From Acidobacteriota bacterium (GTDB lineage: Bacteria; Acidobacteriota; Terriglobia; 2-12-FULL-54-10): a stretch of 64,000 nucleotides of DNA. This document shows positions 1 to 33,418 of this stretch, piece after piece (position 1 is the stretch's first letter; each line of letters starts with the position of its first letter). Location: positions 6,123-70,122 of the forward strand of contig JACPPJ010000070.1 in NCBI GenBank assembly GCA_016191085.1, read 5' to 3'. The translations under genes and the position numbers were made by a program. The notes below the pieces were generated by a model that made no database searches, was not told the origin of the DNA, and saw only the letters and a list, made by a program, of their open reading frames with translations.

Positions 1-150
1 TTTCCAAAGAACTGCCTCGATAATTCCACGGGCAGCGGAGGGCGTCATGACCGGATAAGACACTCTCTCGACCTTAAGCTCCGGTCGAGTAAAACATGCG
101 AGAAGACCGCGAGCGCGCAATCGCATTGTGGGGCTTCTAGGCACTGTCAT
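1..150 (-). CDS. cas5: Cas5c (type I-C Cas5d) N-terminal fragment; gene continues beyond the left edge of the window
   Basis: RBS AGGAGAGAG then ATG at 150 (minus strand), 50 nt downstream of the cas3 stop. Translation [50 protein letters not shown] matches the conserved Cas5d N-terminus (..[31 protein letters not shown]). The cas3-cas5c order is typical of type I-C. Confidence 0.7.
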
Positions 151-200
151 TGCTCTCTCCTTTCTAATTTCGTGATCGGCTGTTTCTTGCTAAAGCGTGT

Positions 201-2477
201 TCAAGCCATGAGGGCCGCAGGGTCGGCGTACAGCTCGTCACCAATTGTCAAACCGAATCTCTTGTCATAGTACTTCTCGTAAGGCTTAGAGAGGGTGAAT
301 ATACTTTCTGTTACTTCTTCCAACGCTCCTGCTTTGGTTAGCTTGTCAAAGGCATTGGGGTAAACATTCACGGTGAACCTCTGAAGATTGCGTAGTGTCT
401 CCCGCCTCGGCCCCTCAGTGCGGAGACGCAGCAGGTGTTCGGCTACCCCTTCGTAAGGAACAACGATAGATTTGGTAAAGCCATCCTCTATCAGCCGGAA
501 CTCACGTCCTACGGAGGCGAAGTTGAACTCCTGGCGGAGTGTCTGGATGTGCTTCATGTCGAGGTCCTTCGTAAAATAGAGCATCCTGAAATATTTTTCG
601 AACAATTCAGGATCGGCTGGGTCAAGAGTCCCTCCAGCCTCTTGCAGCATGGCTTCCATAACACCCAAAGCCTGCTTTGGAGTGCCGGGCGGGGGAGATG
701 ACTCAGCCCGGAAAATTACGACCTGACCCTTATCGCGGCGACCTTCCCGGTTGCACCTGCCAGCGGCCTGCACCATGCTGTCCAGCCCACCGAGCGCGCG
801 GTACACAATAGGAAAATCCAAATCCACTCCGGCCTCCACCAATTGCGTTGATACGACACGGCAGGGGCTTCCTTGCGTGCGTGTTCCTTTGATCTCCGCT
901 AACTTTGCCGAGCGATGCGCCGCGCACATTAAGGCCGAGAGATGGAAAACAGGGGTGTCGGGATCGGATTTATAAAGCTGCTGGGCCAGATTGCGAGCGT
1001 CGTCTCGTTTATGCACTATGGCCAGAACTTGCTGATGGTCCAACAGGTTGCTAGTGAGTTGCTCCCACGTCATCGCGGGAGCCTGAAGGTCCGGCCAGAA
1101 ATATTCTACTCGCTTCAGTTTCTGCGCCAATTCCTTGGGATTCGCAACGATCTCTCGAATTCCGTGGAGTCCCTTTTCAAAACCGATTCTCGCGGCAAGG
1201 GCTGGAGGAGTCGCCGTGGATAGGACAACCGTACACCCATAGTGGGTCACCAGTGCGTTGAGCGCATCGACGATACTGAGGAGGAATCCAGGCGGCAAGG
1301 ATTGAACCTCGTCCAGGATAATCACGCTTCGCGCAATGTTGTGGAGTTTGCGGCAGCGTGAAGGATGATTCGAGAACAGGGATTCGAAAAATTGAACTGT
1401 TGTTGTGACAATGATGGGAGCGTCCCAGTTTTCGCAGGCGAGTTCGTTCCTGTCTGTAAATTCCTGGCCGTACTGGCGCTTTGCTTTCTCTGGATCAAGG
1501 TTGGAGTGATGCTCCACGACGTTCTCGGCTCCAAGGGCTCGCCTATAAACGTCGGCGTTCTGCTCGATGATGCTGGTATATGGTATAACCACGATGACTC
1601 GCCGATGTCCCCACCGCTCGGCGTGACCAAGCGCGAACGACATCCCTGACAAGGTCTTCCCCCCGCCCGTTGGAACGGTGAGGCTGGAAATGCCTGGCTC
1701 CAACATGGCGGCTGTTCGGCATGCATTGAGGATGTGTGCGCGCGCTAGGTTCAGTTGGCTGGATTTTCCGAGAGCGGTGAGACCGGCCATCTCTTTGTCA
1801 ATGAATGAGTCTAGTTTTTCCCGAAGCGTGCCTATGAGAGAGAATCGGCTTCGAAGAGCGGACTTCGCCGGATCACAGAATTCCTCTGTATCTAGGCGGT
1901 CGGCGTCCACTAAGGCTGAGAACAAGAAACGGGTCCAGAATTCAGATGTTCGACAAAGCTCAAAACGCTCCTCGGGTAGCAACCCGGAGTGGGCCAAAAG
2001 GAACGCGGGAAGCTGGGGCATTGGACCGTCTGCTATTTCGGCAGGGATCATTGGGGTTATTTTTTCGAGTACCTTAGCGTTTTCTTTTAGTCGCTCCTTT
2101 AGTGGTTTCGGGGCACTCGGCTCGGACGAAATAGGATTGGCGAGTCCAGCGTGGTGAGCCGCAATTACAAAGGCTAGCGGTTCTCCCAAACTCTTGTTTT
2201 TTTGAATTGCGAGAGCGGCCCCCGCGCCAGAGTGTTCGACCGATTCCCGCGCCCCCAGCAGTTTCCGTTGAAATTCAACCTGGTACTTGCCAAGATCGTG
2301 CCAGAGTCCCGCGCAGTAGCCCCACTCGCGAGACTGAAACGCCTCCGCGAATTGACCGGCAAGTTTCGCAACACGAAGGAGATGTTCATTCAACTTGTCC
2401 CAGTTCGCAGGGGGCAAGCCTTCGCGACTGTGCGCATAGAAGACTGGGGTTTCGTTTACTTCAATGCTGTCGGTCAT
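201..2477 (-). CDS. cas3: CRISPR-associated helicase/nuclease Cas3 (HD domain fused N-terminal to SF2 helicase), 758 aa
   Basis: N-terminal HD motifs (YAHS.., GLWHDLGKY..FQ). Walker A TVPTGGGKT, DEVQ box (VIILDEVQSL), SAT motif (VLSTATPP), and a C-terminal helicase domain. Confidence 0.9.
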   Translation of the reverse strand: MTDSIEVNETPVFYAHSREGLPPANWDKLNEHLLRVAKLAGQFAEAFQSREWGYCAGLWHDLGKYQVEFQRKLLGARESVEHSGAGAALAIQKNKSLGEPLAFVIAAHHAGLANPISSEPSAPKPLKERLKENAKVLEKITPMIPAEIADGPMPQLPAFLLAHSGLLPEERFELCRTSEFWTRFLFSALVDADRLDTEEFCDPAKSALRSRFSLIGTLREKLDSFIDKEMAGLTALGKSSQLNLARAHILNACRTAAMLEPGISSLTVPTGGGKTLSGMSFALGHAERWGHRRVIVVIPYTSIIEQNADVYRRALGAENVVEHHSNLDPEKAKRQYGQEFTDRNELACENWDAPIIVTTTVQFFESLFSNHPSRCRKLHNIARSVIILDEVQSLPPGFLLSIVDALNALVTHYGCTVVLSTATPPALAARIGFEKGLHGIREIVANPKELAQKLKRVEYFWPDLQAPAMTWEQLTSNLLDHQQVLAIVHKRDDARNLAQQLYKSDPDTPVFHLSALMCAAHRSAKLAEIKGTRTQGSPCRVVSTQLVEAGVDLDFPIVYRALGGLDSMVQAAGRCNREGRRDKGQVVIFRAESSPPPGTPKQALGVMEAMLQEAGGTLDPADPELFEKYFRMLYFTKDLDMKHIQTLRQEFNFASVGREFRLIEDGFTKSIVVPYEGVAEHLLRLRTEGPRRETLRNLQRFTVNVYPNAFDKLTKAGALEEVTESIFTLSKPYEKYYDKRFGLTIGDELYADPAALMA

Positions 2478-2638
2478 AAGCTAATGACCCACTGCCGAAC
2501 TGAGTCGTTTCCTGAACGGTCTGCCTCTCCCCAATGATCGACTTCTTGGGCGGCTGCTAAGCTATAATCACATCAGACCAAGCGCAGAGAAGTGTACACC
2601 GGATCAGATGCTTCCTGAAACTGCTTAGGTCTGTCGAT

Positions 2639-3193
2639 TTGGGGCAAGAAGTTTGGTTCGATTGCATGGTTTTCTTTTCGGAAAGGAGACCTGGTATGCG
2701 GGGTACAGGAGGGCGCGAATGGCTAGCGTGGGGCGATTCTAGGATAGTTGACGATGGTGCGAGGCGCGAGCTTTCAACCAAGGGAGCATTGCTCGAAACA
2801 TTGGATATCCTGATTGCAGAAGCGGTGAAGTTCTCCGACACGTCCAGGACAACAATGATCGGTGAGTTAATCGGTCTGAAGAATCGGGCACGTTATTGTC
2901 TCGCCGACCTTGGACCAGACGCTCGTGACGCCTTGCGTGTGAGTGCGGAAATTAATTTTCCGAAGGCCTCAGAACCAAAATTCGAGGAGCAATGCTACGA
3001 GCTTGTGGATCAGTTACGGCGCGTTCTGGAATCAGTCCGAAGCAAAATCGAGAATCGCGTCCCATTGGTACCTAACCGAACTAAAGTGGGGATGGCGAAG
3101 AAAACTAGAGCAAGGAATCAATCTCCCTTTGCCTACTCCGATGAGGACCACAGGCTATACGACTTGATCGGTCCGTCGGCGGGACATTTTTGA
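2639..3193 (+). CDS. hypothetical protein (start uncertain; an internal ATG near 2696 is possible)
   Basis: Long ORF, co-directional with the downstream element genes, no recognisable motif. Confidence 0.35.
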   Translation: MGQEVWFDCMVFFSERRPGMRGTGGREWLAWGDSRIVDDGARRELSTKGALLETLDILIAEAVKFSDTSRTTMIGELIGLKNRARYCLADLGPDARDALRVSAEINFPKASEPKFEEQCYELVDQLRRVLESVRSKIENRVPLVPNRTKVGMAKKTRARNQSPFAYSDEDHRLYDLIGPSAGHF

Positions 3194-3236
3194 CGAATGG
3201 ACATTTGCGACCGACCCGGCCAACTTACAACCCAAG

Positions 3237-3533
3237 GTGCGCCCAGCCTTGCGGAAAGCCGCCGAACACCTCAGAAAATATCCTCCAGTAGGAATGACGC
3301 AAGAGGAAATAGATCGCTTAGTGGAAGCCATAGAAGCCCCGTGGGGCAACCGAATCGAGAAGCAAATCCGGGAGGCAATGGAATCACCAGACGGTACAGC
3401 GGCCTCCATAGCGGTTGCCGAGACCGTGAAACGCCTCGGCCTGGAGCCTTTCAAAGCCCCTGATCCTCTGCCTCCCATCGAGCCGCAAGACATCAAGCTG
3501 ATTTGCTGGCTGGCAGTGGATACGGCGAGTTAG
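3237..3533 (+). CDS. hypothetical small acidic protein (GTG start)
   Basis: 98-aa ORF with protein-like composition (MTQEEIDRLVEAIEAPWGNRIEKQIREAME). No homolog recognised. Confidence 0.3.
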   Translation: MRPALRKAAEHLRKYPPVGMTQEEIDRLVEAIEAPWGNRIEKQIREAMESPDGTAASIAVAETVKRLGLEPFKAPDPLPPIEPQDIKLICWLAVDTAS

Positions 3534-3733
3534 GGACTTTCCCGACCTGAATTGGCGAGGGGCACCATGCCCTGCTGGAGTCCAGAACTGGACGGTAGCT
3601 TGGGGAGAGGGGCAGAATCGCAGACTCAGCCCGCCGCTTGTGAGAACATTTCCTTCCTCTCGGGGAATGCGTACAATGTGCTTCAAAGGGTCGGCTATCC
3701 TTTCCGTCCAAATGACCCAACAATCTGGTAAGC

Positions 3734-4189
3734 GTGGGGCAACCGATCATGGACCACCGGGACAAGATCATCGCCGACATTGCGGAAAGGGAATGCAGGC
3801 GCGTCTCTCGGAAAGTCATTGTCGCCCTCCAAAAGATGACCGAAGGTATGCAGTCAGGAGATGGCTCCATTCTCAAGAATGTCTGGGATGAGGTGTGCGT
3901 CCAAGTCCAGTTTCAGCAATCGGTAATGTGGGATGCCTACCTTGAGACCATCAGCACGTTTATCGGGGGCGAAGTTGAGGGACTGGATGCTTTACAAAAG
4001 CAAGCCATTTGGCTCCAGACTGACAACGGAATGGAGTGGGAGGCGGAAAACGAGGGCGAGGGAACAGTTACATTCTGCGAGGACGATATCACCGAATACA
4101 TACTCCATAAGTTTGTGCTGTCGGCGGCTGCCGATTGGACCAACAAACGCATTGAGAAATACCTTGCACTCTTTATTGAATTTGATTGA
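3734..4189 (+). CDS. hypothetical strongly acidic protein (151 aa, about 28 D/E vs 14 K/R)
   Basis: Clean ORF. Composition recalls DNA-mimic anti-defence proteins. No motif recognised. Confidence 0.45.
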   Translation: MGQPIMDHRDKIIADIAERECRRVSRKVIVALQKMTEGMQSGDGSILKNVWDEVCVQVQFQQSVMWDAYLETISTFIGGEVEGLDALQKQAIWLQTDNGMEWEAENEGEGTVTFCEDDITEYILHKFVLSAAADWTNKRIEKYLALFIEFD

Positions 4190-4303
4190 TCGCCCAACTA
4201 TCGGCGGCGGCGGAGTATAGGTCAACGCACTGAAAAGTGACTGCATCCCCAAGCCGCCTGCTGCCGGTCTATTTTTATTCGGGAACCGGCGCGGGAGACG
4301 GGA

Positions 4304-5482
4304 TTGGCCAAGCAAACCCAGAAACAAATCGGGTACAGAATCGAGGATATTCGCTGGCTTTTCTGGCAAGTCCTTCGGCGATCTCCGAAATACCGGAAAT
4401 CAGTGGCCCGTCTTCTTAGGCTTTGGCGTAAGGATTCCAAGCTCAGGCCATGGAAGCCAGGGCTGACAGATAACCAGCGGGAGTGGCGACGGCACAAAGC
4501 ACATGCAGCTCAGGCAATGTTGCGAGCGTATAAGGGGTTGCAATTCGGTGAGATAAAACTATCTGCCGAGCAGTCCGACCTAAAGTTTGAATGGGGCAGC
4601 CTGGATCTAGAAAGCTTCTCGCAGCTAGAGCGTACAGGGGTGGTTCCCAGGCGGAGAGGAGATCGCAAGAAAGGGTCTTACCACGCAGAGGTTTTCCGGG
4701 CAGGCAAGAGAGCAAAGCCGCGTGGTACAGAGAGATTCCAGAGGGGCGTCCATCGGACGATGACTGAATTGGAGTGCATTACGAGCAAGGCTCTTCGTTC
4801 TCGCTATTACACACCAGGAACGGGGAAAACTGCGGTGGAAATACTTTTCTCCAGGCACCGAAAGGACGCGTTACCCGAACTGGAAAACTTCACGCGTCGC
4901 TGGAAGATGCGCTTCCCTGTACCTCCCTCCATAGAAGTGCCGCTAGAGCATGATATGACGAGCCCTTGGGCGTGGCCAGTAGTGATTCGTCATTTGAAAC
5001 TCACCGAAACCTTAGTCCTGGAAATTAGACCGGAAATTGGAAAAGGGATTGTTCTAGCGTTTATCGGTGGCGCAGTCTGGCACAGCATGAAGAAACGTCG
5101 AGACGGCACCATGCTTACGTCTCGCAAGCATGGACAAAAACGAGAGATGCATGTCAGTAAAAAATCCAACCACCAACTCTTGGTAGAAATCTCGCTCCCG
5201 GCTAACAAGGAAGACGTGTTGCGGGAGGTAGATAAGCATTTGGCCATCCACTCGCCCCACTTCCAGCTTGCTGAGAAACCTGATAAAAAGATTTCCCTCG
5301 ACAGAGAGTATTACGCGTTGATGTTCCAGGCTATTGATCTGCGGAAACGCGGGAAACGCGGTCTGAAGTTGGCAGACATAGCCGCAAGGTTCTGGCCGGA
5401 CCGTCAGAAGGATGCCCGCTCGGTTCGTGACCTTGCGGTAGCTTTCTCTGAACTCGCAACCAGATTTGACATCCCCCGGTAA
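4304..5482 (+). CDS. hypothetical basic protein (392 aa)
   Basis: Long ORF rich in K/R, no recognisable domain. Part of the element gene set. Confidence 0.45.
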   Translation: MAKQTQKQIGYRIEDIRWLFWQVLRRSPKYRKSVARLLRLWRKDSKLRPWKPGLTDNQREWRRHKAHAAQAMLRAYKGLQFGEIKLSAEQSDLKFEWGSLDLESFSQLERTGVVPRRRGDRKKGSYHAEVFRAGKRAKPRGTERFQRGVHRTMTELECITSKALRSRYYTPGTGKTAVEILFSRHRKDALPELENFTRRWKMRFPVPPSIEVPLEHDMTSPWAWPVVIRHLKLTETLVLEIRPEIGKGIVLAFIGGAVWHSMKKRRDGTMLTSRKHGQKREMHVSKKSNHQLLVEISLPANKEDVLREVDKHLAIHSPHFQLAEKPDKKISLDREYYALMFQAIDLRKRGKRGLKLADIAARFWPDRQKDARSVRDLAVAFSELATRFDIPR

Positions 5483-5523
5483 TTCCTGCCTTTACCTGCC
5501 CCCAAACTTCCGAATGCAATCCG

Positions 5524-5745
5524 TTGCAAGAGGAATACGCTTGCCTCATGCAGCACACGATATTTTTGACAACTTCCGAAGCCGCTAAAATTCTGCGCCT
5601 CACGCCGGCATCGGTAAGGGCATTGGAACGATCGGGGAAAATGAAGGCGCTCCGAACTCCCTCCGGGGTACGCATCTTCCGACTGGAGGACGTTCAACGT
5701 TTCTTAAAGGATCGTGAAGCGCACCGCGAGGGTAGAGGCAAGTGA
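5524..5745 (+). CDS. HTH_17 / excisionase-family (MerR-like) DNA-binding protein
   Basis: LTTSEAAKILRLTPASVRALERSGKMKALRTPSGVRIFRLEDVQRFL matches the excisionase-family HTH pattern. Confidence 0.6.
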   Translation: MQEEYACLMQHTIFLTTSEAAKILRLTPASVRALERSGKMKALRTPSGVRIFRLEDVQRFLKDREAHREGRGK

Positions 5746-5797
5746 TGGAGTGCGTTGCGATGCTCCAAGGCAACCGATCATACGTCGAGGTGCTTTA

Positions 5798-6895
5798 ATG
5801 CGTAACTACGCGATGATTTCTCCACTGTTTTGGATTGACGAGACCGGTAAAAAGCTCCGCCGTGCGGGAGAGGGAGTTCAACTGGTCGCCCTCTACTTAA
5901 TGACCTGCCCGGCAGCAAATATGTTGGGCCTCTACTACCTCGCACTCCCAACGCTCTGCCACGAGGTCGGGAAGGACAAAGAGGAAGTTTCGAAGGCTTT
6001 GAAAATCCTCTCTGATTTAGGGTTTGCTCACTACGATGCCGAAAGCGAGTATGTGTGGATACCGGAAATGGCCCGGATTCAGATCGGGCAAACGTTGAAG
6101 GTCGGGCAAAGGTTGAAGGCAGGCGACAAGCAGCGAGTCGGTATCGAGAGAGAACTTCAACAGATCAGGAGCAAGAAACTTGTCAACTTATTCCTGGAGC
6201 GGTACGCCGACGATTTCAATCTTGAAATCGAGACGGAGTCTGACCGCCACGGAGGGTTTAACGGAGGAGAAGATACCCCATCCGAAGGGGTAGCAAATCT
6301 CGCAGAACCCCTCTCGAAGCCCCATCGAAGGGGTACGAATAACTCCGCGAAGCCCATTCGAAGCAAAGAACAAGAGCAGGAGAATTACCAGGAACAGGAA
6401 CAAGAACAAGAATTTATTATGAAGGGGGAGTGTGAGGGGGAAACCAATTTCAAAAATGGTGGAAGCAATCCCAGGAAAAAGCCCCCGCAAAAGCGGGGAC
6501 CCCATTCTTCTTTTACAAAGTCCAGAACTGGGCATCCCGTCATAGACATGAACCAGGATGTAATTTCCTGGATGGAGAAAACCGGCAGGGAGTCCGGGAA
6601 GCGGTGGACGTACAGCAAGGACAAGCGGAAGAACCAAGGGCCGACTCCGGGGATGGAAGCCGAGATTCAGGAGAAGGACCGCACCGACGGGCCGTTCTTT
6701 CGCCCCGCGTGGTTGGATTATCTCCAGACGGACAGTGCGCGGACGGAGCGGTATCCGTACCGGAATTTTCTGGAGGGGTTCTGGCAACGCCGGTTGTCGG
6801 AGTTGGCCGAGGCGCAAGGGGCCGTGGAGCACGCGGCGAACATGGCGCGGTGGAAAGCTAAAGCACAGATTGGCGAATTACCAGAGGAGGGCTGA
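5798..6895 (+). CDS. putative replication-initiator / replisome-organizer-like DNA-binding protein with QEQEQE low-complexity linker
   Basis: The N-terminal region (LVALYLMTCPAANMLGLYYLALPTLCHEVGKDKEEVSKALKILSDLGF) resembles winged-helix replication-organizer N-domains. The ORF-track start at 5714 overlaps the upstream gene, so ATG 5798 is preferred. Confidence 0.4.
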   Translation: MRNYAMISPLFWIDETGKKLRRAGEGVQLVALYLMTCPAANMLGLYYLALPTLCHEVGKDKEEVSKALKILSDLGFAHYDAESEYVWIPEMARIQIGQTLKVGQRLKAGDKQRVGIERELQQIRSKKLVNLFLERYADDFNLEIETESDRHGGFNGGEDTPSEGVANLAEPLSKPHRRGTNNSAKPIRSKEQEQENYQEQEQEQEFIMKGECEGETNFKNGGSNPRKKPPQKRGPHSSFTKSRTGHPVIDMNQDVISWMEKTGRESGKRWTYSKDKRKNQGPTPGMEAEIQEKDRTDGPFFRPAWLDYLQTDSARTERYPYRNFLEGFWQRRLSELAEAQGAVEHAANMARWKAKAQIGELPEEG

Positions 6896-7124
6896 GGGTT
6901 TGTCAAGAAAACACCCAACGGTCGAGGAATTAAACCGCAAGCGGGAGAACATCGCTAAGCAGCGCGGAATTGTCCGCATCAGCATCGAGGACATTATGGA
7001 GGCGCGGGCCTATAAGCACGGATTCGATGCGGCCAGGGTTTCTGGTGCGAGCGCGGTGAGTGCATTCCGAATCGCCAAGGGAAGGACCCGACGTGGCGAC
7101 TGAGATGTAGCGGATGACGGCAAG

Positions 7125-7355
7125 GTGTGGAATATGAATTATCCCCAGGGCGATTTTTCTGCCCGTTATTTTTGCCGGGGCTGCGGCGAGCCACTGGTGG
7201 GCGGGGAACCGCGTGACTTCCATCCCGATTGCCTAAAAGCCGACAAGCGTCGCCGGACGAGGGAAAAGCGCCTCCGCGAGAGAACCAAGTTTCAAAGCTG
7301 GCTGCGGCGGCAGATGTGCCCCCATTGCGGCGGGAAGTTTGGCAAGCCGGGATAG
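7125..7355 (+). CDS. small zinc-ribbon protein (CxxC...CxxC), basic C-terminus
   Basis: CRGCGEP...HPDC...CPHCGGK cysteine pairs. Confidence 0.35.
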   Translation: MWNMNYPQGDFSARYFCRGCGEPLVGGEPRDFHPDCLKADKRRRTREKRLRERTKFQSWLRRQMCPHCGGKFGKPG

Positions 7356-7497
7356 AAGCTTCCGATGCTGCGAGGAATCTGCCTGTGAAGCTTCACACAG
7401 ACCGTCACTCGTGGAACTGGATGTCGTGCCAGTGAATGTCTTGACGAACCGGCTGCGGCAACGTCTAAAGAACGGCCTTGAGCTTGGACCGAAAAGC

Positions 7498-7932
7498 ATG
7501 AGTATGAACTCAATCCCGAAGTTGAGCGAGTTGCTGGAGCAGCCGGAAAAGGTGTCCACGCTGCCCTTGGAAGCGGTCCCGGCGTTGCGGGGCAAGCTCG
7601 CCGAGTTGGACACGCTGCTACAGATGCGCGTGGCGATGGCCCAGAGCAACGGCTCTATTGTCCCGGTTCCGCTCGCTGGACAGCCTGAGCTAATTGACTC
7701 CCCGGAACTGGCAAGGCGATGGAGCGTGCCGGAGTCCTGGGTACGGGATTGTGTTCGCAATCGGAGCGGAGACCCTATCCCTTGCGTCCGGCTTGGGAGA
7801 TACGTCCGTTTTGAATGGGGCTCGCCGGACCTGGAGGCGTGGTTTGGTCGCCGAAAAAGCGGGGCTAATTCCAAGCCGGAAGGTAGAACAAGAAACCGCT
7901 TGACAAGGCATCCTATTTCGGTTTATCAATAA
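7498..7932 (+). CDS. HTH_17 / AlpA-excisionase-like DNA-binding protein
   Basis: The C-terminal LIDSPELARRWSVPESWVRDCVRNRSGDPIPCVRLGRYVRFEWGSPDLEAWF fits the excisionase-family HTH. ATG 7498 or 7504 is preferred over the ORF-track start at 7339. Confidence 0.5.
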   Translation: MSMNSIPKLSELLEQPEKVSTLPLEAVPALRGKLAELDTLLQMRVAMAQSNGSIVPVPLAGQPELIDSPELARRWSVPESWVRDCVRNRSGDPIPCVRLGRYVRFEWGSPDLEAWFGRRKSGANSKPEGRTRNRLTRHPISVYQ

Positions 7933-7936
7933 TAAC

Positions 7937-8143
7937 ATGGGGCGAAGAAAAGCAGGACGGCCTAAGAAGAATCCCGAACACCGGCATAGCAAGTGGGTCA
8001 TGATCCGCCTGACACCGGGCGAGCATCGTAGCCTGCAAAACTACGCAGAACAGAGGGGTACTACGATGGCTGAATTCGTGCGTCACCTTGCGCTCCGCCG
8101 AATAGGGTACAGGGGCGAGTCTCGAAAGGAGGAAACAAAATGA
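7937..8143 (+). CDS. ribbon-helix-helix DNA-binding protein (MobC/CopG-like), possible Xis or regulator, translationally coupled to int
   Basis: KWVMIRLTPGEHRSLQNYAEQRGTTMAEFVRHLAL matches RHH/MobC consensus. The stop overlaps the int start (ATGA). Confidence 0.5.
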   Translation: MGRRKAGRPKKNPEHRHSKWVMIRLTPGEHRSLQNYAEQRGTTMAEFVRHLALRRIGYRGESRKEETK

Positions 8144-9315
8144 AGACTCGCCGGCAAGAAGGTCATATCTTCAAGGACGCTGGATATTGGTACGTTCGGT
8201 TTTACCAGGACGAAATCGGAGAAAGTGGGCAGATTGTGCGGCGTCAACGCGCAAAGAAGCTTGCGAGGGTCTCCGAATATCGTTCCAAAAAATCAGTCGA
8301 GCCGCTGCGAGATGAAATGCTCGAACGGCTCCAAGTCAACTCGCCGCACTACAACCCGGAAAGCACGATGACCATTGCCGGGTTTGTGAAGGAGCACTTC
8401 TTTCCGCATCACGTCTCCCAACTCAAGCCCTCGGTGCGCCCTTCCTATGAATGCAACTGGAAGAAGCACTTGGAGCCTGTGTGCGGGCAGATTCGGTTGC
8501 GGGATTTCCGAACCAGCGACGGCGAGCGTGTCATGAGGGAACTCGTGAGGCGGAACTTGGGCCGAAACACCGTTCGCCACTGCAAGAGCATCCTGAGCGG
8601 AATTTTCTCTGAGGCGATCCGCTTGGGCGTGCTCGACACCGGGAATCCTGTTCGGGAAGTCCGAATCCCGAGCAGCAAGCTCCGGCCGCCGGAAGAGACG
8701 GGTGCCTACTCGCTGGAAGAGATCACGAGGATGCTCCGCAACTTGATCGGGCCAGCCAGAGCCATTATCGCGGTGTTCGCCTACACGGGCTTGCGGAAGG
8801 GCGAAGTCGCGGCGCTCCGGTGGGAGTCTTGGCGGGACGGTGCCTTATGGGTCGAGCAATCGGCTTGGCGGACACAGCTTACCGATCCGAAATCCGTCAA
8901 GAGCAAGTCCCCGGTTCCGGTGATTGCTCCGCTGGCCGCGATTCTCTCAGAGCACCTGAACGGTCGCGCCGAAGGTCTGATGTTCAGATCAAGCAGGGGG
9001 ACTCCGCTGAACCTGGACAACTTTGCCAAGCGGACCATCCGGCCCCTACTCGAAAAACTGGGTATTGGCTGGCACGGCTTCCATGCCTTCCGCCGTGGGC
9101 TTGCGACAAACCTGAACGAGATGGGCGTTGACCCGAAGGTTGTCCAGGCGATAATGCGGCACGCCGATTTCCAGACCACGATGAATCACTACGTCAAAGC
9201 GGTCCCGGAGTCGGCAAGAAAGGCCATGGAAGGGCTCGAACGGCTAATATGCAGCCAGTATGCAGTAGAAAAGGACCTGGACCGTTGCGAAACTCCCGTA
9301 ACTCGCTTAAACTAA
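8140..9315 (+). CDS. int: tyrosine-type site-specific integrase (intact, 391 aa)
   Basis: Catalytic residues in context: AYTGLRKGE (Arg), HAFRRGLAT (His-x-x-Arg), MRHADFQTTMNHY (Tyr). The gene ends 6 nt before tRNA-Arg. Confidence 0.9.
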   Translation: MKTRRQEGHIFKDAGYWYVRFYQDEIGESGQIVRRQRAKKLARVSEYRSKKSVEPLRDEMLERLQVNSPHYNPESTMTIAGFVKEHFFPHHVSQLKPSVRPSYECNWKKHLEPVCGQIRLRDFRTSDGERVMRELVRRNLGRNTVRHCKSILSGIFSEAIRLGVLDTGNPVREVRIPSSKLRPPEETGAYSLEEITRMLRNLIGPARAIIAVFAYTGLRKGEVAALRWESWRDGALWVEQSAWRTQLTDPKSVKSKSPVPVIAPLAAILSEHLNGRAEGLMFRSSRGTPLNLDNFAKRTIRPLLEKLGIGWHGFHAFRRGLATNLNEMGVDPKVVQAIMRHADFQTTMNHYVKAVPESARKAMEGLERLICSQYAVEKDLDRCETPVTRLN

Positions 9316-9321
9316 AACCAC

Positions 9322-9399
9322 GCGCCTGTAGCTCAGTCTGGATAGAGCGTTGGTCTCCGGAACCAAAGGTCGGAGGTTCGAATCCTCTCAGGCGCGCCA
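9322..9399 (+). tRNA. tRNA-Arg (anticodon CCG)
   Basis: Cloverleaf: acceptor GCGCCTG/CAGGCGC, anticodon loop CTCCGGA, T-arm GGAGGTTCGAATCCTCT, discriminator G plus CCA. Near-identical to E. coli argX. Confidence 0.9.
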
Positions 9400-9502: not shown

Positions 9503-9841
9503 CTAGCTGGTTCTCCCGACCGCCTCTTGCTGGATCGCAATGACGGTCTGTTGTTGCTCCTGTTGCTTTGCTACGGCCTGTAGATACTGCTGGGTCTTGA
9601 GCAAGGCCTCCTGCTGGTCTCGCTCGTCTACGATGTCGTACCGGGTGAAGATGGAGCGGGTACGATGACCCAGAACCATCATGCAAACGTCTTCTGGGAC
9701 ACCGGCCCGGCGCATATCACGCGCCCTGGTTCGCCGCAGATCATGGAACAGTTTCTTGACCCCGGCATTCTTGCAAGCCGTTGCCCAAGCCTTACGGATG
9801 TCTCCAACCGGCGCGCCGGGCGCACTGTGCCCCGGCGACGT
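9503..9841 (-). pseudogene. C-terminal fragment (about 113 aa) of a second tyrosine integrase, N-terminus deleted
   Basis: Minus-strand frame reads ..[59 protein letters not shown] (HxLRHT, LGH, Y motifs). The frame opens directly after a stop at about 9842 with no N-terminal domains. Confidence 0.7.
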
Positions 9842-10157
9842 TCATTTCACCGACGCGGCTTTCCAGCCCGTATTCGCCCTGTGAAATGGCGTTGGAGTTG
9901 AACGTGTTGGTTTCGATGATATCGGCGCCGGCCTCGAGATATTGCCGGTGTATGTCTTCGATGATGTGAGGCTGAGTAACATTGAGTACGTCGGCGTTGA
10001 GCCGCAACTCTCTCGGATGTTGCGCGAACTCCTTGCCGCGATAATCCGCTTCAGTGAGGTGGAAGGCTTGAATAACGGTGCCCAGCGCGCCGTCGAGGAT
10101 GACAATGCGCCGGTCGAGGGTCTCTTTAAGCCGGGCGACACGTTCCGGGTTGGTCAT
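9792..10157 (-). pseudogene. metH: N-terminal about 120 aa of methionine synthase MetH (homocysteine-binding domain), remainder deleted
   Basis: MTNPERVARLKETLDRRIVILDGALGTVIQ...VTQPHIIEDIHRQYLEAGADIIETNTFNSNAISQ aligns to the MetH N-terminus. Homology stops mid-domain and the frame terminates at 9792, overlapping the integrase fragment. Confidence 0.65.
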
Positions 10158-10222
10158 GCATTGATGTGTGAACTGCGATGGCCCTCCCACGAATCAGTAT
10201 ACACTGCGGCAGCGATGACGCG

Positions 10223-26939: not shown

Positions 26940-27026
26940 GCGGATGTGGCGGAACTGGCAGACGCGCTAGATTCAGGTTCTAGTGCCCTAACGGGCGTGG
27001 AGGTTCGAGTCCTCTCATCCGCACCA
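26940..27026 (+). tRNA. tRNA-Leu (anticodon CAG), 87 nt with long variable arm; attL of the downstream island
   Basis: Acceptor GCGGATG/CATCCGC, anticodon loop TTCAGGT, long variable arm, T-arm GGAGGTTCGAGTCCTCT, ACCA end. Confidence 0.9.
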
Positions 27027-27042
27027 ATTGATTCCACAGTAT

Positions 27043-28155
27043 TTACGCTCCAACTGCCGCCACAGTTTCAAATACCTGTTTTTCGCCGGTGTCAGTTTTG
27101 GTGCCAGTTGCTCCCGCCGTCAGTCTCTCGACTGCCTCTTGCAAGTGGGCCTCTCCAAGGTGGGAATACCGCAGAGTCGTTTCAATCCGCTTGTGTCCCA
27201 TAAGCACCTGGACGGCCCGCAAGGGAACCGCAGCCATAACAAGACGACTGGCGAAGGTATGCCGTAGATCGTGCCAGCGGAAGTTTGCAATCTTTGCTGC
27301 GGTCAGACACTCGTTGAACCAATCCTGCCTGTCGTGAATCGGAGCGCCGTCAGAGCCGGGGCAGACGTGCCCGATTGCGCCGTGAAGCTCCCGCAGCTTC
27401 AGAAGCGCAGCCTTTGCCGCAGAGTTAATATGGACGTGCCGGGCTTCCCCGTGCTTGCTCCGGGCAATGGTGATGATGCCGCGCTTCAGGTCTACGTCCT
27501 GCCAGCGCAGCCCGTATTGTTCCCCGCGTCTCATGCCAGTGTGAAGGGCAAGCTCAAACTCCGGCTCCCGCTCCGGGCAAACCTCTTTGATCTTCTCCCG
27601 CAGCGCGGTTTCTTCTTTCTCATCCAGGAAGCGCACCCGCTCGTTGTTTTCGGTGAGCGGCTTCACCTGCCGGACAGGATTCGAGGACACCTTGCCATTG
27701 CGTATCGCCAATGAGAAAACCAAGCTCAGAAGCGCACGGTAGCGGTTCAGGGTTGCGGGCTTGCGTCCGTCTTCGGCAAGGGCGTGGAGCTTGCGTTCAA
27801 TATCGTGAGGCAGAATATCCGCCGCCGCACGCTCGCCAAACCAGTCTTTCAGGGTTGCCATGTGCCAGCAGTCAATGCGGTACGCTTCCGGCACCTTGCG
27901 CGCCTCGCAGTGTTCGAGCGCCTCATCTGCCATTTTGCTGAAGGAAACATGCACGTGCCGCAACTTCTCGGGCAATTTCTTCCGTTGGAGCACTTCCGTT
28001 TTGCGCTTGCGGTATAGAGTCTTTGCCGCTTCTTTTAACCCGGCCTTCTCCCGATGAATCCGCCCCGTAGCATCGGCATAGCGAACCCACCAAACATCCG
28101 AGCCGGGCACCTTCTCGTAAATTCCGCGTATTTTCTTCGCTTCCTTCTTAGCCAT
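27043..28155 (-). CDS. int: tyrosine-type integrase (intact)
   Basis: R..HDLRHT..LMGH..TLRY catalytic motifs. Convergent on tRNA-Leu, ending 16 nt from it. Confidence 0.9.
   Translation of the reverse strand: MAKKEAKKIRGIYEKVPGSDVWWVRYADATGRIHREKAGLKEAAKTLYRKRKTEVLQRKKLPEKLRHVHVSFSKMADEALEHCEARKVPEAYRIDCWHMATLKDWFGERAAADILPHDIERKLHALAEDGRKPATLNRYRALLSLVFSLAIRNGKVSSNPVRQVKPLTENNERVRFLDEKEETALREKIKEVCPEREPEFELALHTGMRRGEQYGLRWQDVDLKRGIITIARSKHGEARHVHINSAAKAALLKLRELHGAIGHVCPGSDGAPIHDRQDWFNECLTAAKIANFRWHDLRHTFASRLVMAAVPLRAVQVLMGHKRIETTLRYSHLGEAHLQEAVERLTAGATGTKTDTGEKQVFETVAAVGA
27088..27110. promoter_or_regulatory. putative arm-type recombinase binding repeat (GGTGTCAGTTTTGGTGCCAGTTG), paired with a near-identical copy at 33396..33418
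   Basis: A 23-nt sequence with 2 mismatches lies in direct orientation just inside attL and just inside attR. Confidence 0.35.
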
Positions 28156-28372
28156 GTTTTTTCGGTTCCTTTCCAGCCGTAGCACGTCGTTTCAAAGTCT
28201 TTCTGTGCCCCTGAGCGAGCGTGTGCAACGCCAACGCAAGCATAGAGGGAATTTTGCGGGTGCCAGTCTCCCAACGCGCAACGGCAACCCTGTGGACTCC
28301 GAGGGCGGACGCGAGCTGTTCCTGAGTCATTCCCAGCTTGTCGCGAATCACTCTAAGTTCTTCCGGGTTCAT
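28148..28372 (-). CDS. XRE-family HTH transcriptional regulator
   Basis: LGMTQEQLASALGVHRVAVARWETG is a canonical XRE/Cro-C1 HTH. Confidence 0.6.
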   Translation of the reverse strand: MNPEELRVIRDKLGMTQEQLASALGVHRVAVARWETGTRKIPSMLALALHTLAQGHRKTLKRRATAGKEPKKHG

Positions 28373-28518
28373 GTAGCCAATGGTTACATACAGAGAGATG
28401 GATGTCAAGCGGAAATTTCGCAGATCACGCTAAAACCCTTTCGGGCTGCGATCCCTACAATGGTGTTATACTGCTTTCGCAATTATTCCGGGTTCTTGAA
28501 ACAGGCCGGAAGCCGGAA

Positions 28519-28806
28519 TCAGCCTTTCTTAACCGTCCGTGCTCGATCCAGTGCGCGTTCGATTTGTAGCAGAACTTTCGAGGGTTTCACGCTTAGCGTT
28601 GCAGAGATATTGAAAATCGTGCGAAGGGAAGGACTCTTCTGCCCATTTTCCAGCAAGCCGATGTACGTCCGATGGTATCCGCTCTTGTCGGCTAACCATT
28701 GTTGAGATTTTCCCTGCTTGCGCCGGATTGCCCGCACAACAAAACCAAAAGCAAGTTCCGGCGTGGATAACCTCTCCGTCTCATCGGTACGCTTCAGCCT
28801 GCCCAT
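28519..28806 (-). CDS. XRE-family HTH transcriptional regulator (repressor candidate)
   Basis: IRRKQGKSQQWLADKSGYHRTYIGLLENGQKSPSLRTI is an XRE HTH. Confidence 0.65.
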   Translation of the reverse strand: MGRLKRTDETERLSTPELAFGFVVRAIRRKQGKSQQWLADKSGYHRTYIGLLENGQKSPSLRTIFNISATLSVKPSKVLLQIERALDRARTVKKG

Positions 28807-28826
28807 AGGCAGACATCATTTCGTTA

Positions 28827-28860
28827 TTGACGACTAAAGAGTGACACACTATAGTCGTCA
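28827..28860. promoter_or_regulatory. divergent promoter/operator: perfect 8-bp inverted repeat GACGACTA-N13-TAGTCGTC with TTGACG and TATAGT hexamers
   Basis: Lies between the XRE gene (minus) and the secreted-protein gene (plus). Read directly from the sequence. Confidence 0.35.
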
Positions 28861-28914
28861 CTTGCCCGCTGATGTTGTTCTGCGAGGGAAATCAAATGCG
28901 AGAGGAGAATTCTC

Positions 28915-29769
28915 ATGCGACATATGCTGATTGCTGTGCTGCTGTTGTTTGCGTCGGTTCCCGCACATTCTCAGGGGATATCTGTGCAGGCTGCGCCAGA
29001 AGAAAAGAACACTATCATCGGTTCTTATCGCGGAGCCTATCGAAAACAAGTGTTTGTCGGCCCCACAGATCAAGTATTTCCGCACATTGCTACCGGTGGC
29101 GGCTGGGAAACGGTGATCGTGATTTTGAATATGGGAAGTGCAAGGGTGGATTTTAGGCTGCGTTTTTACGGGCAGGATGGGAGGCCCTTGGCCGTTACGT
29201 TCCGCGATTATCCAGACTTGAACATGGTCACAACGTCAGCCGCCGTAGGCTTCTTGGGTCCTAATGCCAGCTTCAACTTTGCTCTTTTCGACTCTACTCC
29301 GGACACTCGCGTAGGTTGGGCTTCCCTCGATTACGATTCCACGGGAGCGCGGATGGGAGGCTATGCAATCTTTCGCCAACGAGTACCCGGACGCCCAGAT
29401 TACGAAGCACTTGTGCCACTAAGTGCGTATGACGATTACAAGTTCTATATGCCCTTCGACAACATTCAGGGCTTTGTTACTGCTATGGCGCTGGTCAATC
29501 CGGCATCGAATCTCAGTAGCCGGATTACGATCACGGCTTTCACTCTTAGAGGGGTTGTGATAGATCGCATAGTCATTACCCTGCCGCCTGGAGGTCAGAC
29601 TGCCTTCGTACTTGCAGACCGCTTCCCTGCCTTCGCCAACACTCTCGGGACCTTGTACGTCGAAAGCGATACCACGAGAATGTCAGCGCTTGGACTTAGG
29701 TTTAATACAGCCGGCGGCAACGCGTTCTCCTCCATCCCAATCCTGAACTGGGGCGGCATGTTTCCGTAG
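28915..29769 (+). CDS. secreted hypothetical protein (signal peptide), island cargo
   Basis: MRHMLIAVLLLFASVPAHSQG signal. 284 aa, beta-rich composition, the only plus-strand gene of the island. Confidence 0.55.
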   Translation: MRHMLIAVLLLFASVPAHSQGISVQAAPEEKNTIIGSYRGAYRKQVFVGPTDQVFPHIATGGGWETVIVILNMGSARVDFRLRFYGQDGRPLAVTFRDYPDLNMVTTSAAVGFLGPNASFNFALFDSTPDTRVGWASLDYDSTGARMGGYAIFRQRVPGRPDYEALVPLSAYDDYKFYMPFDNIQGFVTAMALVNPASNLSSRITITAFTLRGVVIDRIVITLPPGGQTAFVLADRFPAFANTLGTLYVESDTTRMSALGLRFNTAGGNAFSSIPILNWGGMFP

Positions 29770-29850
29770 ACCAGATCAGTCCCCCAGCAATTTCATGCCT
29801 GTTTGGTAGCGGTAGCCCATCTATAACGACATCGGCTTTGTCAAGCATGC

Positions 29851-30162
29851 TCATTGCACCTTCCCCTGTGGCTTCCATCGCTCGAACCATTCCTTAACTT
29901 CGTGGGAAATTCGGGGCGGATGAATGTACCGGCCGCCGGAAATCGCATAGCACCCGCCACAGTGCTCCGGGCCAGGGCAGCCGGTCCGGTTTTTGATTTG
30001 ATCTGTGCGCTCAAGTGCACGTTCTTTCCGCTCCGGCTCCAGAGTGATTAAAACGGTTGCGGCTTGTGCTGACGCCTCCGTTTGCTGCGTGCCGAATCCG
30101 GCATCCCGAAGCGCCTTCAGTGCCCGTTCCACTACGTCGTTCATATGCCCGCTAACCCTCAC
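29851..30162 (-). CDS. hypothetical Cys-containing small protein
   Basis: ORF in operon orientation. CPGPEHCGGC motif. Confidence 0.3.
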   Translation of the reverse strand: MRVSGHMNDVVERALKALRDAGFGTQQTEASAQAATVLITLEPERKERALERTDQIKNRTGCPGPEHCGGCYAISGGRYIHPPRISHEVKEWFERWKPQGKVQ

Positions 30163-30283
30163 TACAACGTTTCAAACCGCAACATCCGCCACAAGGCCCG
30201 TCAGCGTTGACCAAAACGCATTTTTTCAAAGTGCAACAGAGCCGCCGTGTTGCGGTTGCGAAAAGTGCTTGAAACCAGCGTCA

Positions 30284-31495
30284 TTATTGGTTTGTGGCGC
30301 TTGTTGCACTTTCAGAACCGACATAGAGGGAAATAGCCTCTTCCAATTCCGCTTTTAAGTAGCCCTTCGGTGTCTTATCTCCGACGCGAACGCCTCTAGG
30401 CTCCGGGCCAAAGTGCTTCAGCATCCGGGCCAGTTTGTTTTGCGTCAACTCCCGCCCCGGCTCATTCCAGGGCGATACCGGCAGTGCTTTCAGCTTTGAA
30501 ACCAGTTCTTCTGACGGAACCTTCTCGTCAAAGGCAGCCAGCAGCTCTCCAATATCTGCCAGCAGTTTCAGCGGCAAGGAATCATCGGTGTCTGACTCTG
30601 CCTTTCCTTTGCTGAGGGCAACCGCTGCCTGTCTCAGTTCCGCTATCCGGCCCGGCGCGAGTACCGCACACACGGCAAACAACGACTGCCAGATTTCTTC
30701 ATTGCGGTCGCTCAAATCATCCATCTCAGGCAATTGTGAATACACCTGTGACACGTCCGCCGCTCGACGGACGGCCATTGACGCCAGCGCCGCTCGCATG
30801 GGGTCCGACTCCGTTTTTGCCTTTCGAGAAAGAAACCGTCCAACGGGTTCCCCGTTTTTGCGCCGCCGCATTCTGATGACAATGCTTCTATCGAACACGG
30901 TATCCGGCAGCGAGCCGATGGCGATGACGGCCTTCGGCCCGTAAACGCTGAAGGGCTGCAATTCATGTTTGGGTGGAACGCATCGGTACACAGAGGCACC
31001 TTGCCGGTATCCTGCATTCAGGATGCTGACGATTGCCTGTGATCGTTCGTTTCTCTTCTCTTTCAGAGCCTCCGCTTCATCTAGCAGCAGCGTGCAGCCG
31101 CCCTTGTCCACCAGCCGGAACAGTGCCGCCTCACTGATTCCGGTTGTCAGGACGGGATTCAGCGCCACACAGCCGAGCACTTCAGCCAAGCGAGTCTTAC
31201 CGCACCTCTTTGCGGGCGAGACGATGCTAAGGTACGGGAACGAGTCGAAACATTTGTATAGATACGTTGCAACCGTCCAGCACGCTAGGGGTAGAGCGGC
31301 TTTTTCCGGCAATATAAGGTACTTCGTCAGAAACGATTCCAACGCCGGAATAATTTCGGCTTCCACCAGCGCCGCCGCAGCGACGTTTGGCTTATTCCGG
31401 TACTCGTGATCCCGAGTGATTTTTTCCAGCAACACAGGATCATTCTGAATTGCACCTTCAACGGCAGCTTGCGCCGCGTAAAGATCGTTACTCAT
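30284..31495 (-). CDS. DUF3631-like P-loop protein (primase/helicase C-terminal-domain-like), replication module
   Basis: Walker A SPAKRCGKTRL and Walker B TLLLDEAE. Architecture typical of DUF3631 proteins of integrative elements. Confidence 0.55.
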   Translation of the reverse strand: MSNDLYAAQAAVEGAIQNDPVLLEKITRDHEYRNKPNVAAAALVEAEIIPALESFLTKYLILPEKAALPLACWTVATYLYKCFDSFPYLSIVSPAKRCGKTRLAEVLGCVALNPVLTTGISEAALFRLVDKGGCTLLLDEAEALKEKRNERSQAIVSILNAGYRQGASVYRCVPPKHELQPFSVYGPKAVIAIGSLPDTVFDRSIVIRMRRRKNGEPVGRFLSRKAKTESDPMRAALASMAVRRAADVSQVYSQLPEMDDLSDRNEEIWQSLFAVCAVLAPGRIAELRQAAVALSKGKAESDTDDSLPLKLLADIGELLAAFDEKVPSEELVSKLKALPVSPWNEPGRELTQNKLARMLKHFGPEPRGVRVGDKTPKGYLKAELEEAISLYVGSESATSATNQ

Positions 31496-32133
31496 GCCGC
31501 ATTCTCCCTAGCCGCAAATTCGCGGTATAGTTCCGCCGCGTTTTGCTCGAATTCGCATAGCTGCTGATAACGTGCGTCGGCGCGCTCCTGCCATTGCGCC
31601 AACACTTGCAGTTTTGTAAACACCTCCTCGCCGACAGACTGCCCGGCAGCGAGTTGCTGTTGACCGATTCGCCGCCATTCAGCTTCGTAGCGATCCAAGT
31701 CTCGTATAAGGGCTGCGCTCGCAATGCGCCTTTGTCGCGCCCACTCCGTAAATTGCTCTGCCTCACGTCGAACGATCTGACGTTGCCGCTGCTCTTCGTG
31801 GGTGTCGCGCCTTTGCTCCATGCCAAGCTCGCGGGCCAGAGTCCAGGCGTTCCCGCTCCAGCCGCATTTGTGGCAATGGAAAACTTCAGCGTTGTAACTT
31901 CCAGTCCGCCGCGCGTGGCATTCCGGGCAGTCGAACCGGCTGTTTCCGCGCAACTCCGCGCCGGCCTGCAGTAGCAGTTCCGGGATCGTCGCCGCGCTCA
32001 TGGCTCGCCTGCTGTGTTTTGTGAGTACGGCCGATTTTTTCCCGGCCCGCCGCTGCGTTCCAAGAGAGCCAGCAAGAACCGCCGATGGCCCGCCATAAAT
32101 CCCGCAGCGCGCTTGCGAAATTGCGGCGTGCAT
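31492..32133 (-). CDS. zf-CHC2 (DnaG-primase-type zinc finger) protein
   Basis: FDCPECHARRTGSYNAEVFHCHKCGWSGNAWTLAREL matches the CHC2 primase zinc finger. The start is uncertain (ORF-track start 32235 overlaps alpA). Confidence 0.5.
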   Translation of the reverse strand: MHAAISQARCGIYGGPSAVLAGSLGTQRRAGKKSAVLTKHSRRAMSAATIPELLLQAGAELRGNSRFDCPECHARRTGSYNAEVFHCHKCGWSGNAWTLARELGMEQRRDTHEEQRQRQIVRREAEQFTEWARQRRIASAALIRDLDRYEAEWRRIGQQQLAAGQSVGEEVFTKLQVLAQWQERADARYQQLCEFEQNAAELYREFAARENAA

Positions 32134-32191
32134 CGTTCGAGCGCCAGCCGGTGCAATTCTTCGAGCGTCAACCCTTCCAATTCTTCGCGCC

Positions 32192-33395: not shown

Positions 33396-33418
33396 GGTGT
33401 CAGTTCTGGTGTCAGTTG
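33396..33418. promoter_or_regulatory. second copy of the arm-type repeat (GGTGTCAGTTCTGGTGTCAGTTG)
   Basis: See 27088..27110. Confidence 0.35.

Follow-up and report, generated by a model that had tools for sequence, protein, structure and literature searches.

Type I-C is among the most prevalent CRISPR-Cas subtypes (PMC7684278), and both the role of Cas5c in pre-crRNA processing and the internal start of Cas11c within cas8c have already been described (PMC7684278). The D. vulgaris type I-C system (7KHA, 8DEX, 8DEJ; PMC7684278) supplies Cas5c, Cas8c and Cas11c chains that match the locus reported here, but it comes from another phylum and its sequences have diverged, and the acidobacterial locus is known from sequence alone. 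In common with the D. vulgaris system, the locus here has no cas6, and the 32-nt repeat ends in GTGGATTGAAAC. We take the D. vulgaris gene set to be cas3-cas5-cas8-cas7-cas4-cas1-cas2, the set that we also find here. The nearest solved structures are the Cas3 chains of 8ZNS and 8G9U and the Cas5, Cas8 and Cas11 chains of the 8G9S/8G9T/8G9U/8GAF series, all of which we believe to be type I-C systems. The Cas3 chain 8zns_A is longer than its counterpart here (854 aa versus 758 aa), and the last ~110 residues of the Cas3 described here align poorly.

Positions 1..2477 (minus strand) of the window, by which we mean the whole 64,000-nt stretch of DNA that was analysed, very probably make up the promoter-proximal end of a type I-C (Dvulg/Csd) locus that is complete and canonical and sits in the chromosome of an uncultured, Terriglobia-like member of the Acidobacteriota. 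This end of the window contains the following features:

1..150, minus strand: start of cas5c (Cas5d), 50 codons, truncated at the window edge; on the public contig L001 the complete gene occupies 3281-3973 (230 codons)
151..200, minus strand: cas3-cas5c intergenic spacer, 50 nt, read directly
201..2477, minus strand: cas3, 758 aa, in which an N-terminal HD nuclease is fused to an SF2 (DExQ-box) helicase, followed by the C-terminal domain of Cas3
2478..2695, unstranded: divergent intergenic region, with cas3 on one side and the neighbouring cluster's first gene on the other

The sole long ORF in 1..2640 is cas3, which has an ATG start and a TGA stop at 203..201. Its product matches the HD domain model TIGR01596 (99.3 bits; cut-off 43.45), the helicase core model TIGR01587 (106.5 bits; cut-off 102.45) and the Pfam domains HD, DEAD and Cas3-like_C_2, and the type I signature, an HD nuclease at the N-terminus of an SF2 helicase, is present. 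Residues 13-648 are matched by the solved chain 8zns_A (E=6.6e-126) and residues 14-647 by 8g9u_P (E=2e-123), and the motifs HDLGK, HHAGLA, DADxLD, PTGGGKT (Walker A) and ILDEVQ are conserved in the alignment to 8zns_A. A scan of 185,579 species genomes returned no relative of this Cas3, so that set contains no close representative of the source lineage. Inspection of the sequence upstream of the cas3 ATG revealed no obvious Shine-Dalgarno sequence.

The first-pass annotation had placed a type I-C cas3-cas5c pair at the window edge, with an ORF beginning 50 nt past cas3 whose first 50 residues were said to be a Cas5d N-terminus, and each of these statements holds. Exactly 50 nt (200..151) separate the cas3 stop from the next ATG, which lies at position 150 on the minus strand, and this spacer contains an AGGAGAG ribosome-binding site 7 nt ahead of that ATG. 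The frame exits the window after 50 codons. The resulting 50-aa fragment matches the Cas5 N-terminal model TIGR02593 (E=5.9e-17, 61.2 bits; cut-off 17.8) and Pfam Cas_Cas5d (E=7e-12), and the best of the subtype models is that of Cas5c, TIGR01876 (E=3.7e-12), ahead of two Cas5b models (5e-4 and 1e-3). We judge the matches to TIGR02593, TIGR01876 and Cas_Cas5d to lie far beyond chance.

Only 150 nt of cas5c are within the window, and the remaining cas genes were read from L001, a separate public short-read contig of 9,062 nt (Logan SRR12113390) that extends leftwards past window position 1. L001 is identical to window 1..3430 at 3430/3430 nt, as is a contig from another sequencing run (L002). 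We infer that L001 is the true continuation of the source genome, a 3.4-kb identity being no strict proof. In addition to the full cas5c, the following genes are found on L001:

3970-5871: cas8c, the subtype signature gene, matching TIGR01863 (Cas8c/Csd1) at 369 bits (cut-off 218.65)
cas7c: Csd2 family, matching TIGR02589 at 403.2 bits (cut-off 182.25), with the I-B Csh2 model under its cut-off
cas4: stand-alone gene, 117.1 bits (cut-off 65)
cas1c: matching TIGR03640 (I-C clade) at 524.5 bits (cut-off 385)
cas2: 66.1 bits (cut-off 24.5)

On L001, cas5c, cas8c, cas7c, cas4, cas1c and cas2 all pass the NCBIfam curated cut-offs, and four of the genes (those for Cas5c, Cas8c/Csd1, Cas7/Csd2 and Cas1c) do so with type I-C models. 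The ORF at the window edge goes on as Cas5d, as had been anticipated: the full-length 230-aa Cas5c scores 153.9 bits against TIGR01876 (cut-off 85) and has matches in two D. vulgaris I-C chains named “pre-crRNA processing endonuclease”, 8dex_A and 7kha_A (E=4e-60), and in chain 8g9t_N (E=8e-51). Likewise, the prediction that cas8c-cas7-cas4-cas1-cas2 would lie left of the window is borne out on L001, whose 3,430-nt overlap with the window is 100% identical. The gene calls put all the genes on one strand, in the order cas3-cas5-cas8-cas7-cas4-cas1-cas2, and their spacings (-4 to 50 nt) are consistent with a single operon; all seven cas ORFs are full length. No cas6-like gene occurs among these seven contiguous genes. 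The solved Cascade Cas8 chains 8g9t_K (E=3.9e-60) and 8dej_I (E=3.9e-58) match Cas8c, and its C-terminal 123 residues (489-611) can be aligned to 7kha_K and 9jhb_B, which are Cas11c chains in their own right (E ~4e-25). Given an in-frame ATG at residue 489 and an AGGAGG 11 nt upstream of it, the 3' part of cas8c has the sequence potential for an internal Cas11c start.

Using Cas1 to scan metagenomes, we recovered 80 related loci (best identity 82%), among which the source contig was absent. The nearest relative found, L003 (Ga0315282_10024451), has a Cas1 82% and a Cas3 72% identical to those here, and a second locus, L051 (Ga0187784_10004942), carries a 48-repeat array; both come from other species. 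L001 ends 186 nt past cas2, in GTCGCTCCCCGCGCGGGAGCGTGGATTG, which reproduces exactly nucleotides 1-28 of the 32-nt L051 repeat. At the leader-repeat junction, the leader closes with GGAATCAACGCATTAGATAAGGTTC and the repeat opens with GTCGCTCCCCGCGCGGGAGCGTGGATTGAAAC. The single repeat visible at the end of L001, shortened to 28 nt, is hairpin-forming; in the fold of the repeat, a 7-bp hairpin precedes an 11-nt tail that ends in ATTGAAAC. In 54 of the 80 related loci, arrays of 3 to 107 repeats, with 32-nt repeats running from GTCGC to GCGTGGATTGAAAC, begin ~480-600 nt past cas1; the repeat on L001 begins 487 nt past cas1, at the same offset. We infer that a multi-spacer array follows this leader-proximal repeat. 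The earlier expectation of a 32-bp repeat array is thus upheld for the repeat, 28 of whose 32 nt follow cas2 and are identical to L051, but not for the array itself, which was not recovered. That the window contains no array is also correct: we found in it neither a CRISPR-like tandem array nor direct repeats at close spacing, and no copy of the repeat when up to 3 mismatches were allowed. To look for I-C targeting of the mobile elements in the window, we compared it with 1,392 spacers from the related arrays, which produced only chance matches of 14-17 nt.

On the far side of cas3 lies a cluster of genes pointing the other way, which ends beside a tRNA gene:

2696..9315, plus strand: integrase-bearing, mobile-element-like cluster of eight co-oriented ORFs, outside the CRISPR-Cas system
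2696-3193, 3237-3533, 3734-4189 and 4304-5482, plus strand: family-less ORFs of the cluster
5524-5745, plus strand: excisionase-like HTH_17 protein (PHROG 1e-8; Pfam HTH_17)
5798-6895, plus strand: DnaD-like helicase loader (PHROG 3e-40)
7339-7932, plus strand: HTH-containing ORF of the cluster
8140-9315, plus strand: tyrosine integrase (PHROG 3e-58; Pfam Phage_integrase)
9322..9399, plus strand: tRNA-Arg (CCG), called by ARAGORN (Rfam tRNA 69.3 bits)

The presence of integrase, excisionase-like and DnaD-like genes beside tRNA-Arg supports the view that 2696..9315 is a mobile element, and the tRNA, which begins 6 nt past the integrase stop codon, is likely the landmark of an integration hot spot adjoining the cas locus. 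Searches for att-type direct repeats with 10-nt seeds over 2300-9800, for 11-mers of the tRNA-Arg region across the whole window (together with blastn-short), and for exact repeats of at least 8 nt between 9290-9420 and 2380-2760 were all negative. Therefore, the ends of the cluster are undefined. Its ORFs are absent beside all 80 related I-C loci, and L003 and L051 accordingly have no integrase cluster beside cas3. Exact-protein look-ups of the cluster genes gave no match, for which the choice of start codon is the probable reason. A chromosomal gene and one ORF in its 146-aa form turned up solely on short contigs of two runs (SRR12113390 and SRR12113401), on which we saw no alternative context or empty site. 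Should the cluster encode an anti-CRISPR or a regulator of the divergently transcribed cas3, the candidates would be the 165-, 98-, 146/151-aa (acidic) and 392-aa ORFs, which sit upstream of two HTH genes in an Aca-like arrangement.

The gap between cas3 and this cluster spans 2478..2695 if translation of the divergent ORF begins at its ATG, which has a good ribosome site; judging by position, the cas3 promoter presumably lies there. A consensus promoter scan of 1..3300 detected no sigma-70-like site in 2478..2695 on either strand; a perfect TATAAT at 2563-2568 (plus strand) faces the 165-aa ORF, not cas3. The first-pass annotation had the cas3 promoter region, given as 2478..2640, abutting a mobile element. 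Mobile-element genes do adjoin it, and it is plausible that the element abuts cas3 directly, but neither the ends of the element nor the promoter was found.

These observations bear on other readings of the locus. A decaying or orphan remnant, with no array, or just one repeat left of it, or with its expression lost, would confer no immunity. The one partial repeat at the end of L001 and the missing promoter consensus upstream of cas3 would fit such a remnant, as would displacement of regulatory DNA by the adjoining mobile-element-like cluster. However, the seven full-length ORFs score above curated cut-offs with catalytic motifs intact, contigs from a De Bruijn graph are expected to end at the first repeat of a real array, and the 54 relatives with arrays have them at the same position, so we regard decay as very improbable. 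We give next to no weight to the reading that the locus belongs to another type I subtype, for example I-G or I-B. By E-value, the top NCBIfam model for Cas3 is in fact that of the I-G Cas3g, and Cas5b models weakly match the 50-aa Cas5 fragment. However, the Cas3g match of 113.7 bits covers only the helicase core and falls far under the 400-bit cut-off, cas4 and cas1 are unfused (on L001 the I-G Cas4-Cas1 fusion model stays under its cut-off), and the repeat is of the same I-C kind as in the relatives. Given that Cas8c/Csd1, Cas7/Csd2, Cas5c and Cas1c pass I-C-specific cut-offs while the I-B, I-D and I-G models fail theirs, I-G and I-B are effectively refuted, unless L001 is misassembled.

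The cluster itself allows two further interpretations. Rather than being ancestral chromosome, the cas locus could be carried as cargo by a larger genomic island whose anchor is tRNA-Arg and whose mobility module is 2696..9315. An intact integrase 6 nt from the tRNA with the cas operon on its far side, the lack of an att repeat between the tRNA and the region upstream of cas3 (so that the left end could lie past the cas locus), and an operon GC of 0.545 versus 0.56 for the window all point in that direction. However, the GC difference is trivial, a position 5' of the tRNA is an unusual geometry, the cluster genes never accompany the 80 related I-C loci, and the far end of such an island, past the array, is unseen; we therefore consider the island unlikely. 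We consider it less likely still that the cluster is a satellite or a prophage-like element, small and integrative, whose persistence beside an active I-C system is owed to an anti-CRISPR or cas3-regulator ORF. We favour a complete type I-C locus with a mobile-element-like neighbour. Its gene identities, intactness, order and subtype, for all seven genes and one leader-proximal repeat, are established at the level of sequence, and it is probably active.

Taking the mechanism over from characterised I-C systems, we propose the following model. The full layout would be cas3, cas5c, cas8c (with the internal Cas11c start), cas7c, cas4, cas1c, cas2, a leader of ~186 nt and the CRISPR array. Given that there is no Cas6, Cas5c would be the pre-crRNA cutter and would cleave the array transcript in the repeat hairpin. 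The crRNA would then assemble with Cas5c, seven Cas7, Cas8c and two Cas11c subunits into a minimal Cascade, which would locate PAM-flanked protospacers in invading DNA and recruit Cas3. The Cas3 helicase would reel in the non-target strand for degradation by the HD nuclease, and Cas4-Cas1-Cas2 would insert new spacers at the leader end.

This is confirmed as an ordinary I-C locus, as expected in its genes and their order, its internal start for Cas11c and its type of repeat. Its host is an uncultured Terriglobia-like acidobacterium of a poorly sampled lineage, whose NuoL is at most 69% identical to that of any species representative. A complete I-C system is thereby documented in that lineage, a finding of little import beyond annotation. 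It also illustrates that a cas operon can be called correctly from 50 codons at a window edge. Once recovered, the spacers could connect this host with its viruses, and also with the two integrative elements that the same window contains.

Window positions 1..2640 contain a single long ORF, at 201..2477 (-), whose 758-aa product carries an HD domain at its N-terminus, an SF2 helicase and a Cas3 C-terminal domain (Pfam). The first-pass annotation had read it as an HD-plus-helicase Cas3, and both NCBIfam domain models agree, scoring above their curated cut-offs (TIGR01596, Cas3 HD domain, 99.3 bits, cut-off 43.45; TIGR01587, Cas3 helicase core, 106.5 bits, cut-off 102.45). Solved Cas3 chains match at E=6.6e-126 (8zns_A) and E=2e-123 (8g9u_P). 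The cas3 stop (TGA, 203..201) is followed by a gap of exactly the 50 nt noted earlier, containing AGGAGAG, and then by a cas5c frame that opens with ATG at 150 and runs 50 codons to the window edge. This 50-residue fragment matches the Cas5 N-terminal model (E=5.9e-17), and Cas5c is the best of the subtype models (3.7e-12 versus ~1e-3 for Cas5b models), as expected from the earlier identification of a Cas5d N-terminus. Given that the models for both Cas3 and the Cas5 N-terminus match, the original observation is exact and far beyond chance.

Using an exact-protein look-up of Cas3 among public contigs, we recovered two contigs from different sequencing runs, L001 (9,062 nt) and L002 (4,056 nt), each matching window 1..3430, reverse-complemented, at all 3430 positions. 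L001 reaches 5,632 nt past the window edge and carries the genes that had been expected to the left, set -4 to 50 nt apart and with no cas6 among them:

Cas genes on L001, with bit scores and curated NCBIfam cut-offs
cas5c, 230 aa; Cas5c, 153.9 bits (cut-off 85)
cas8c, 633 aa; Cas8c/Csd1, 369 bits (cut-off 218.65)
cas7, 300 aa; Cas7/Csd2, 403.2 bits (cut-off 182.25)
cas4, 228 aa; Cas4, 117.1 bits (cut-off 65)
cas1, 343 aa; Cas1c, 524.5 bits (cut-off 385)
cas2, 96 aa; Cas2, 66.1 bits (cut-off 24.5)

Every Cas product on L001 passes its cut-off and, wherever subtype models exist, the I-C model is the one that passes, so that the subtype first read from the cas3-cas5c order holds. L001 Cas5c matches the “pre-crRNA processing endonuclease” of the D. 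vulgaris I-C Cascade (E=4e-60), and Cas8c matches the Cas8 chains of solved Cascade structures (E=4e-60). Residues 489-611 of Cas8c also match 7kha_K, a separately translated small subunit (Cas11c), and the first codon of this stretch, 489, is itself an in-frame ATG with AGGAGG 11 nt ahead of it. An internal start in cas8c giving Cas11c is the arrangement reported for I-C systems (PMC7684278; preprint 10.1101/2020.04.18.045682).

The window was said to be without an array, and searches for repeat copies at up to 3 mismatches, closely spaced direct repeats and CRISPR-like tandem arrays were all empty there. On L001, cas2 is followed by a 186-nt leader and then by GTCGCTCCCCGCGCGGGAGCGTGGATTG at the contig end. 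Of the 32-bp repeat array predicted to the left, 28 nt of one repeat are visible before the contig stops. Searching metagenomes with Cas1 yielded 80 related loci (59-82% identity). In 54 of them cas2 is followed by an array built of 3 to 107 copies of a 32-nt GTCGC...GCGTGGATTGAAAC repeat, beginning ~480-600 nt past the cas1 end (487 nt on L001). The repeat of one locus, with a 48-repeat array, is identical to the 28 nt visible here; when folded, the full repeat forms a 7-bp hairpin and leaves an 11-nt 3' tail. Graph-based assembly would be expected to stop at an array's first repeat, so a real array most likely follows the end of L001.

To the right of the gap upstream of cas3, eight co-oriented ORFs extend to 9315:

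2696..5482 (+), four ORFs of 165, 98, 146/151 and 392 aa, adjoining cas3 and divergent from it, without convincing Pfam or PHROG match
within the cluster (+), excisionase-like HTH_17 protein
within the cluster (+), DnaD-like helicase loader
within the cluster (+), further HTH-containing ORF
8140 (+) to a stop 6 nt before the tRNA-Arg(CCG) 5' end, tyrosine integrase (PHROG integrase, 3e-58)

None of these ORFs occurs beside any of the 80 related I-C loci; this absence, together with their family matches, makes it reasonable to call the cluster a mobile element. That the cas3 upstream region directly abuts such an element, as stated earlier, is plausible; four methods gave no flanking direct repeats that would mark the element's ends. 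The geometry at 8140..9399 is unusual: the intact integrase gene and its element sit upstream (5') of tRNA-Arg, not downstream of its 3' end, and no att repeat of at least 8 nt was found. By position only, the four ORFs at 2696..5482, including the 146/151-aa ORF with its abundant acidic residues, are anti-defence or regulatory candidates; we consider it quite improbable that the cluster encodes an anti-CRISPR or regulator. Within the DnaD-like gene, 6276..6364 form a 44-nt tandem duplication (2 copies, 78% matches), near a low-complexity Glu/Gln-rich stretch of its protein. Position 1 of both L001 and L002 is window 3430, inside the 98-aa ORF, and the next ORF is on a separate 929-nt contig; the same stop base in two independent runs suggests that the graph branches there, owing to strain variation within the sampled population or to a repeat.

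Three other readings of the locus were weighed, and all are unlikely. That the cas genes are cargo of a tRNA-Arg island would fit the neighboring integrase; against it, the related loci lack the cluster's genes, and we hold it to be unlikely. In favor of a decayed locus, no sigma-70-like promoter was found in the 218-nt divergent gap right of cas3; against it, Cas3 keeps its HD motifs, its Walker A loop (PTGGGKT) and its DExQ box (ILDEVQ) in the alignment to 8zns_A, and this reading is quite unlikely. Models for I-B, I-D, I-E and I-G score below their own cut-offs on the L001 proteins, and assignment to a subtype other than I-C is extremely improbable.

The window holds other traces of integration. 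A second, well-delimited integrative element of ~6.6 kb spans 26940..33604:

26940-27026, tRNA-Leu(CAG)
27043-28185 (-), tyrosine integrase
within the element, two HTH_3 regulators
30284-31495, DUF3631 protein
within the element, HTH_17 protein
32808-33242, small-terminase-like protein
33544-33604, 61-nt copy of the tRNA-Leu 3' part (58/61 identical to 26968-27028), marking the element end

Its layout resembles that of a phage satellite or a small prophage. Just beyond the tRNA-Arg 3' end, 9503..10190 (-) holds what is left of a further tyrosine integrase, a C-terminal piece (Pfam Phage_integrase positions 109-166 of 172, E=6e-8). Joined to it, in another frame, is the N-terminal part of a homocysteine S-methyltransferase (MetH-like, positions 1-84 of 283); the whole looks like the scar of an older tRNA-Arg insertion plus deletion.

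The remaining window is ordinary chromosome, with nuo genes, aminopeptidase N and transporters. Genes for antiporter-like subunits of NADH-quinone oxidoreductase form two sets, at 47803..53023 and 59125..63993:

49279-50907 and 60640-62259, nuoM paralogs
50969-53023, nuoL
59125-60633, nuoN

With two such sets in one window, complex I modules seem to be duplicated in this genome. Across 185,579 species genomes the identity of NuoL does not exceed 69%, its best matches being Terriglobia and Bryobacterales Acidobacteriota MAGs, and a pattern scan of the same genomes detected no relative of Cas3.

Judging from family membership, the leader would drive transcription of the array and Cas5c would cut the repeat at the hairpin base. 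The crRNA would then nucleate a Cascade of Cas5c, Cas7(x7), Cas8c and Cas11c(x2), the Cas7 and Cas11c stoichiometry being that of PMC7684278. This complex would bind PAM-flanked protospacers (the D. vulgaris PAM is given as 5'-TTC in 10.1101/2022.06.15.496202) and recruit Cas3, which would nick the displaced strand and degrade it processively, while Cas4-Cas1-Cas2 would add new spacers. The type I-C CRISPR-Cas locus is complete and seems to be intact, and the first-pass finding is correct and ordinary: a type I-C locus of a very well-known kind, in a host from an under-sampled lineage of Acidobacteriota.
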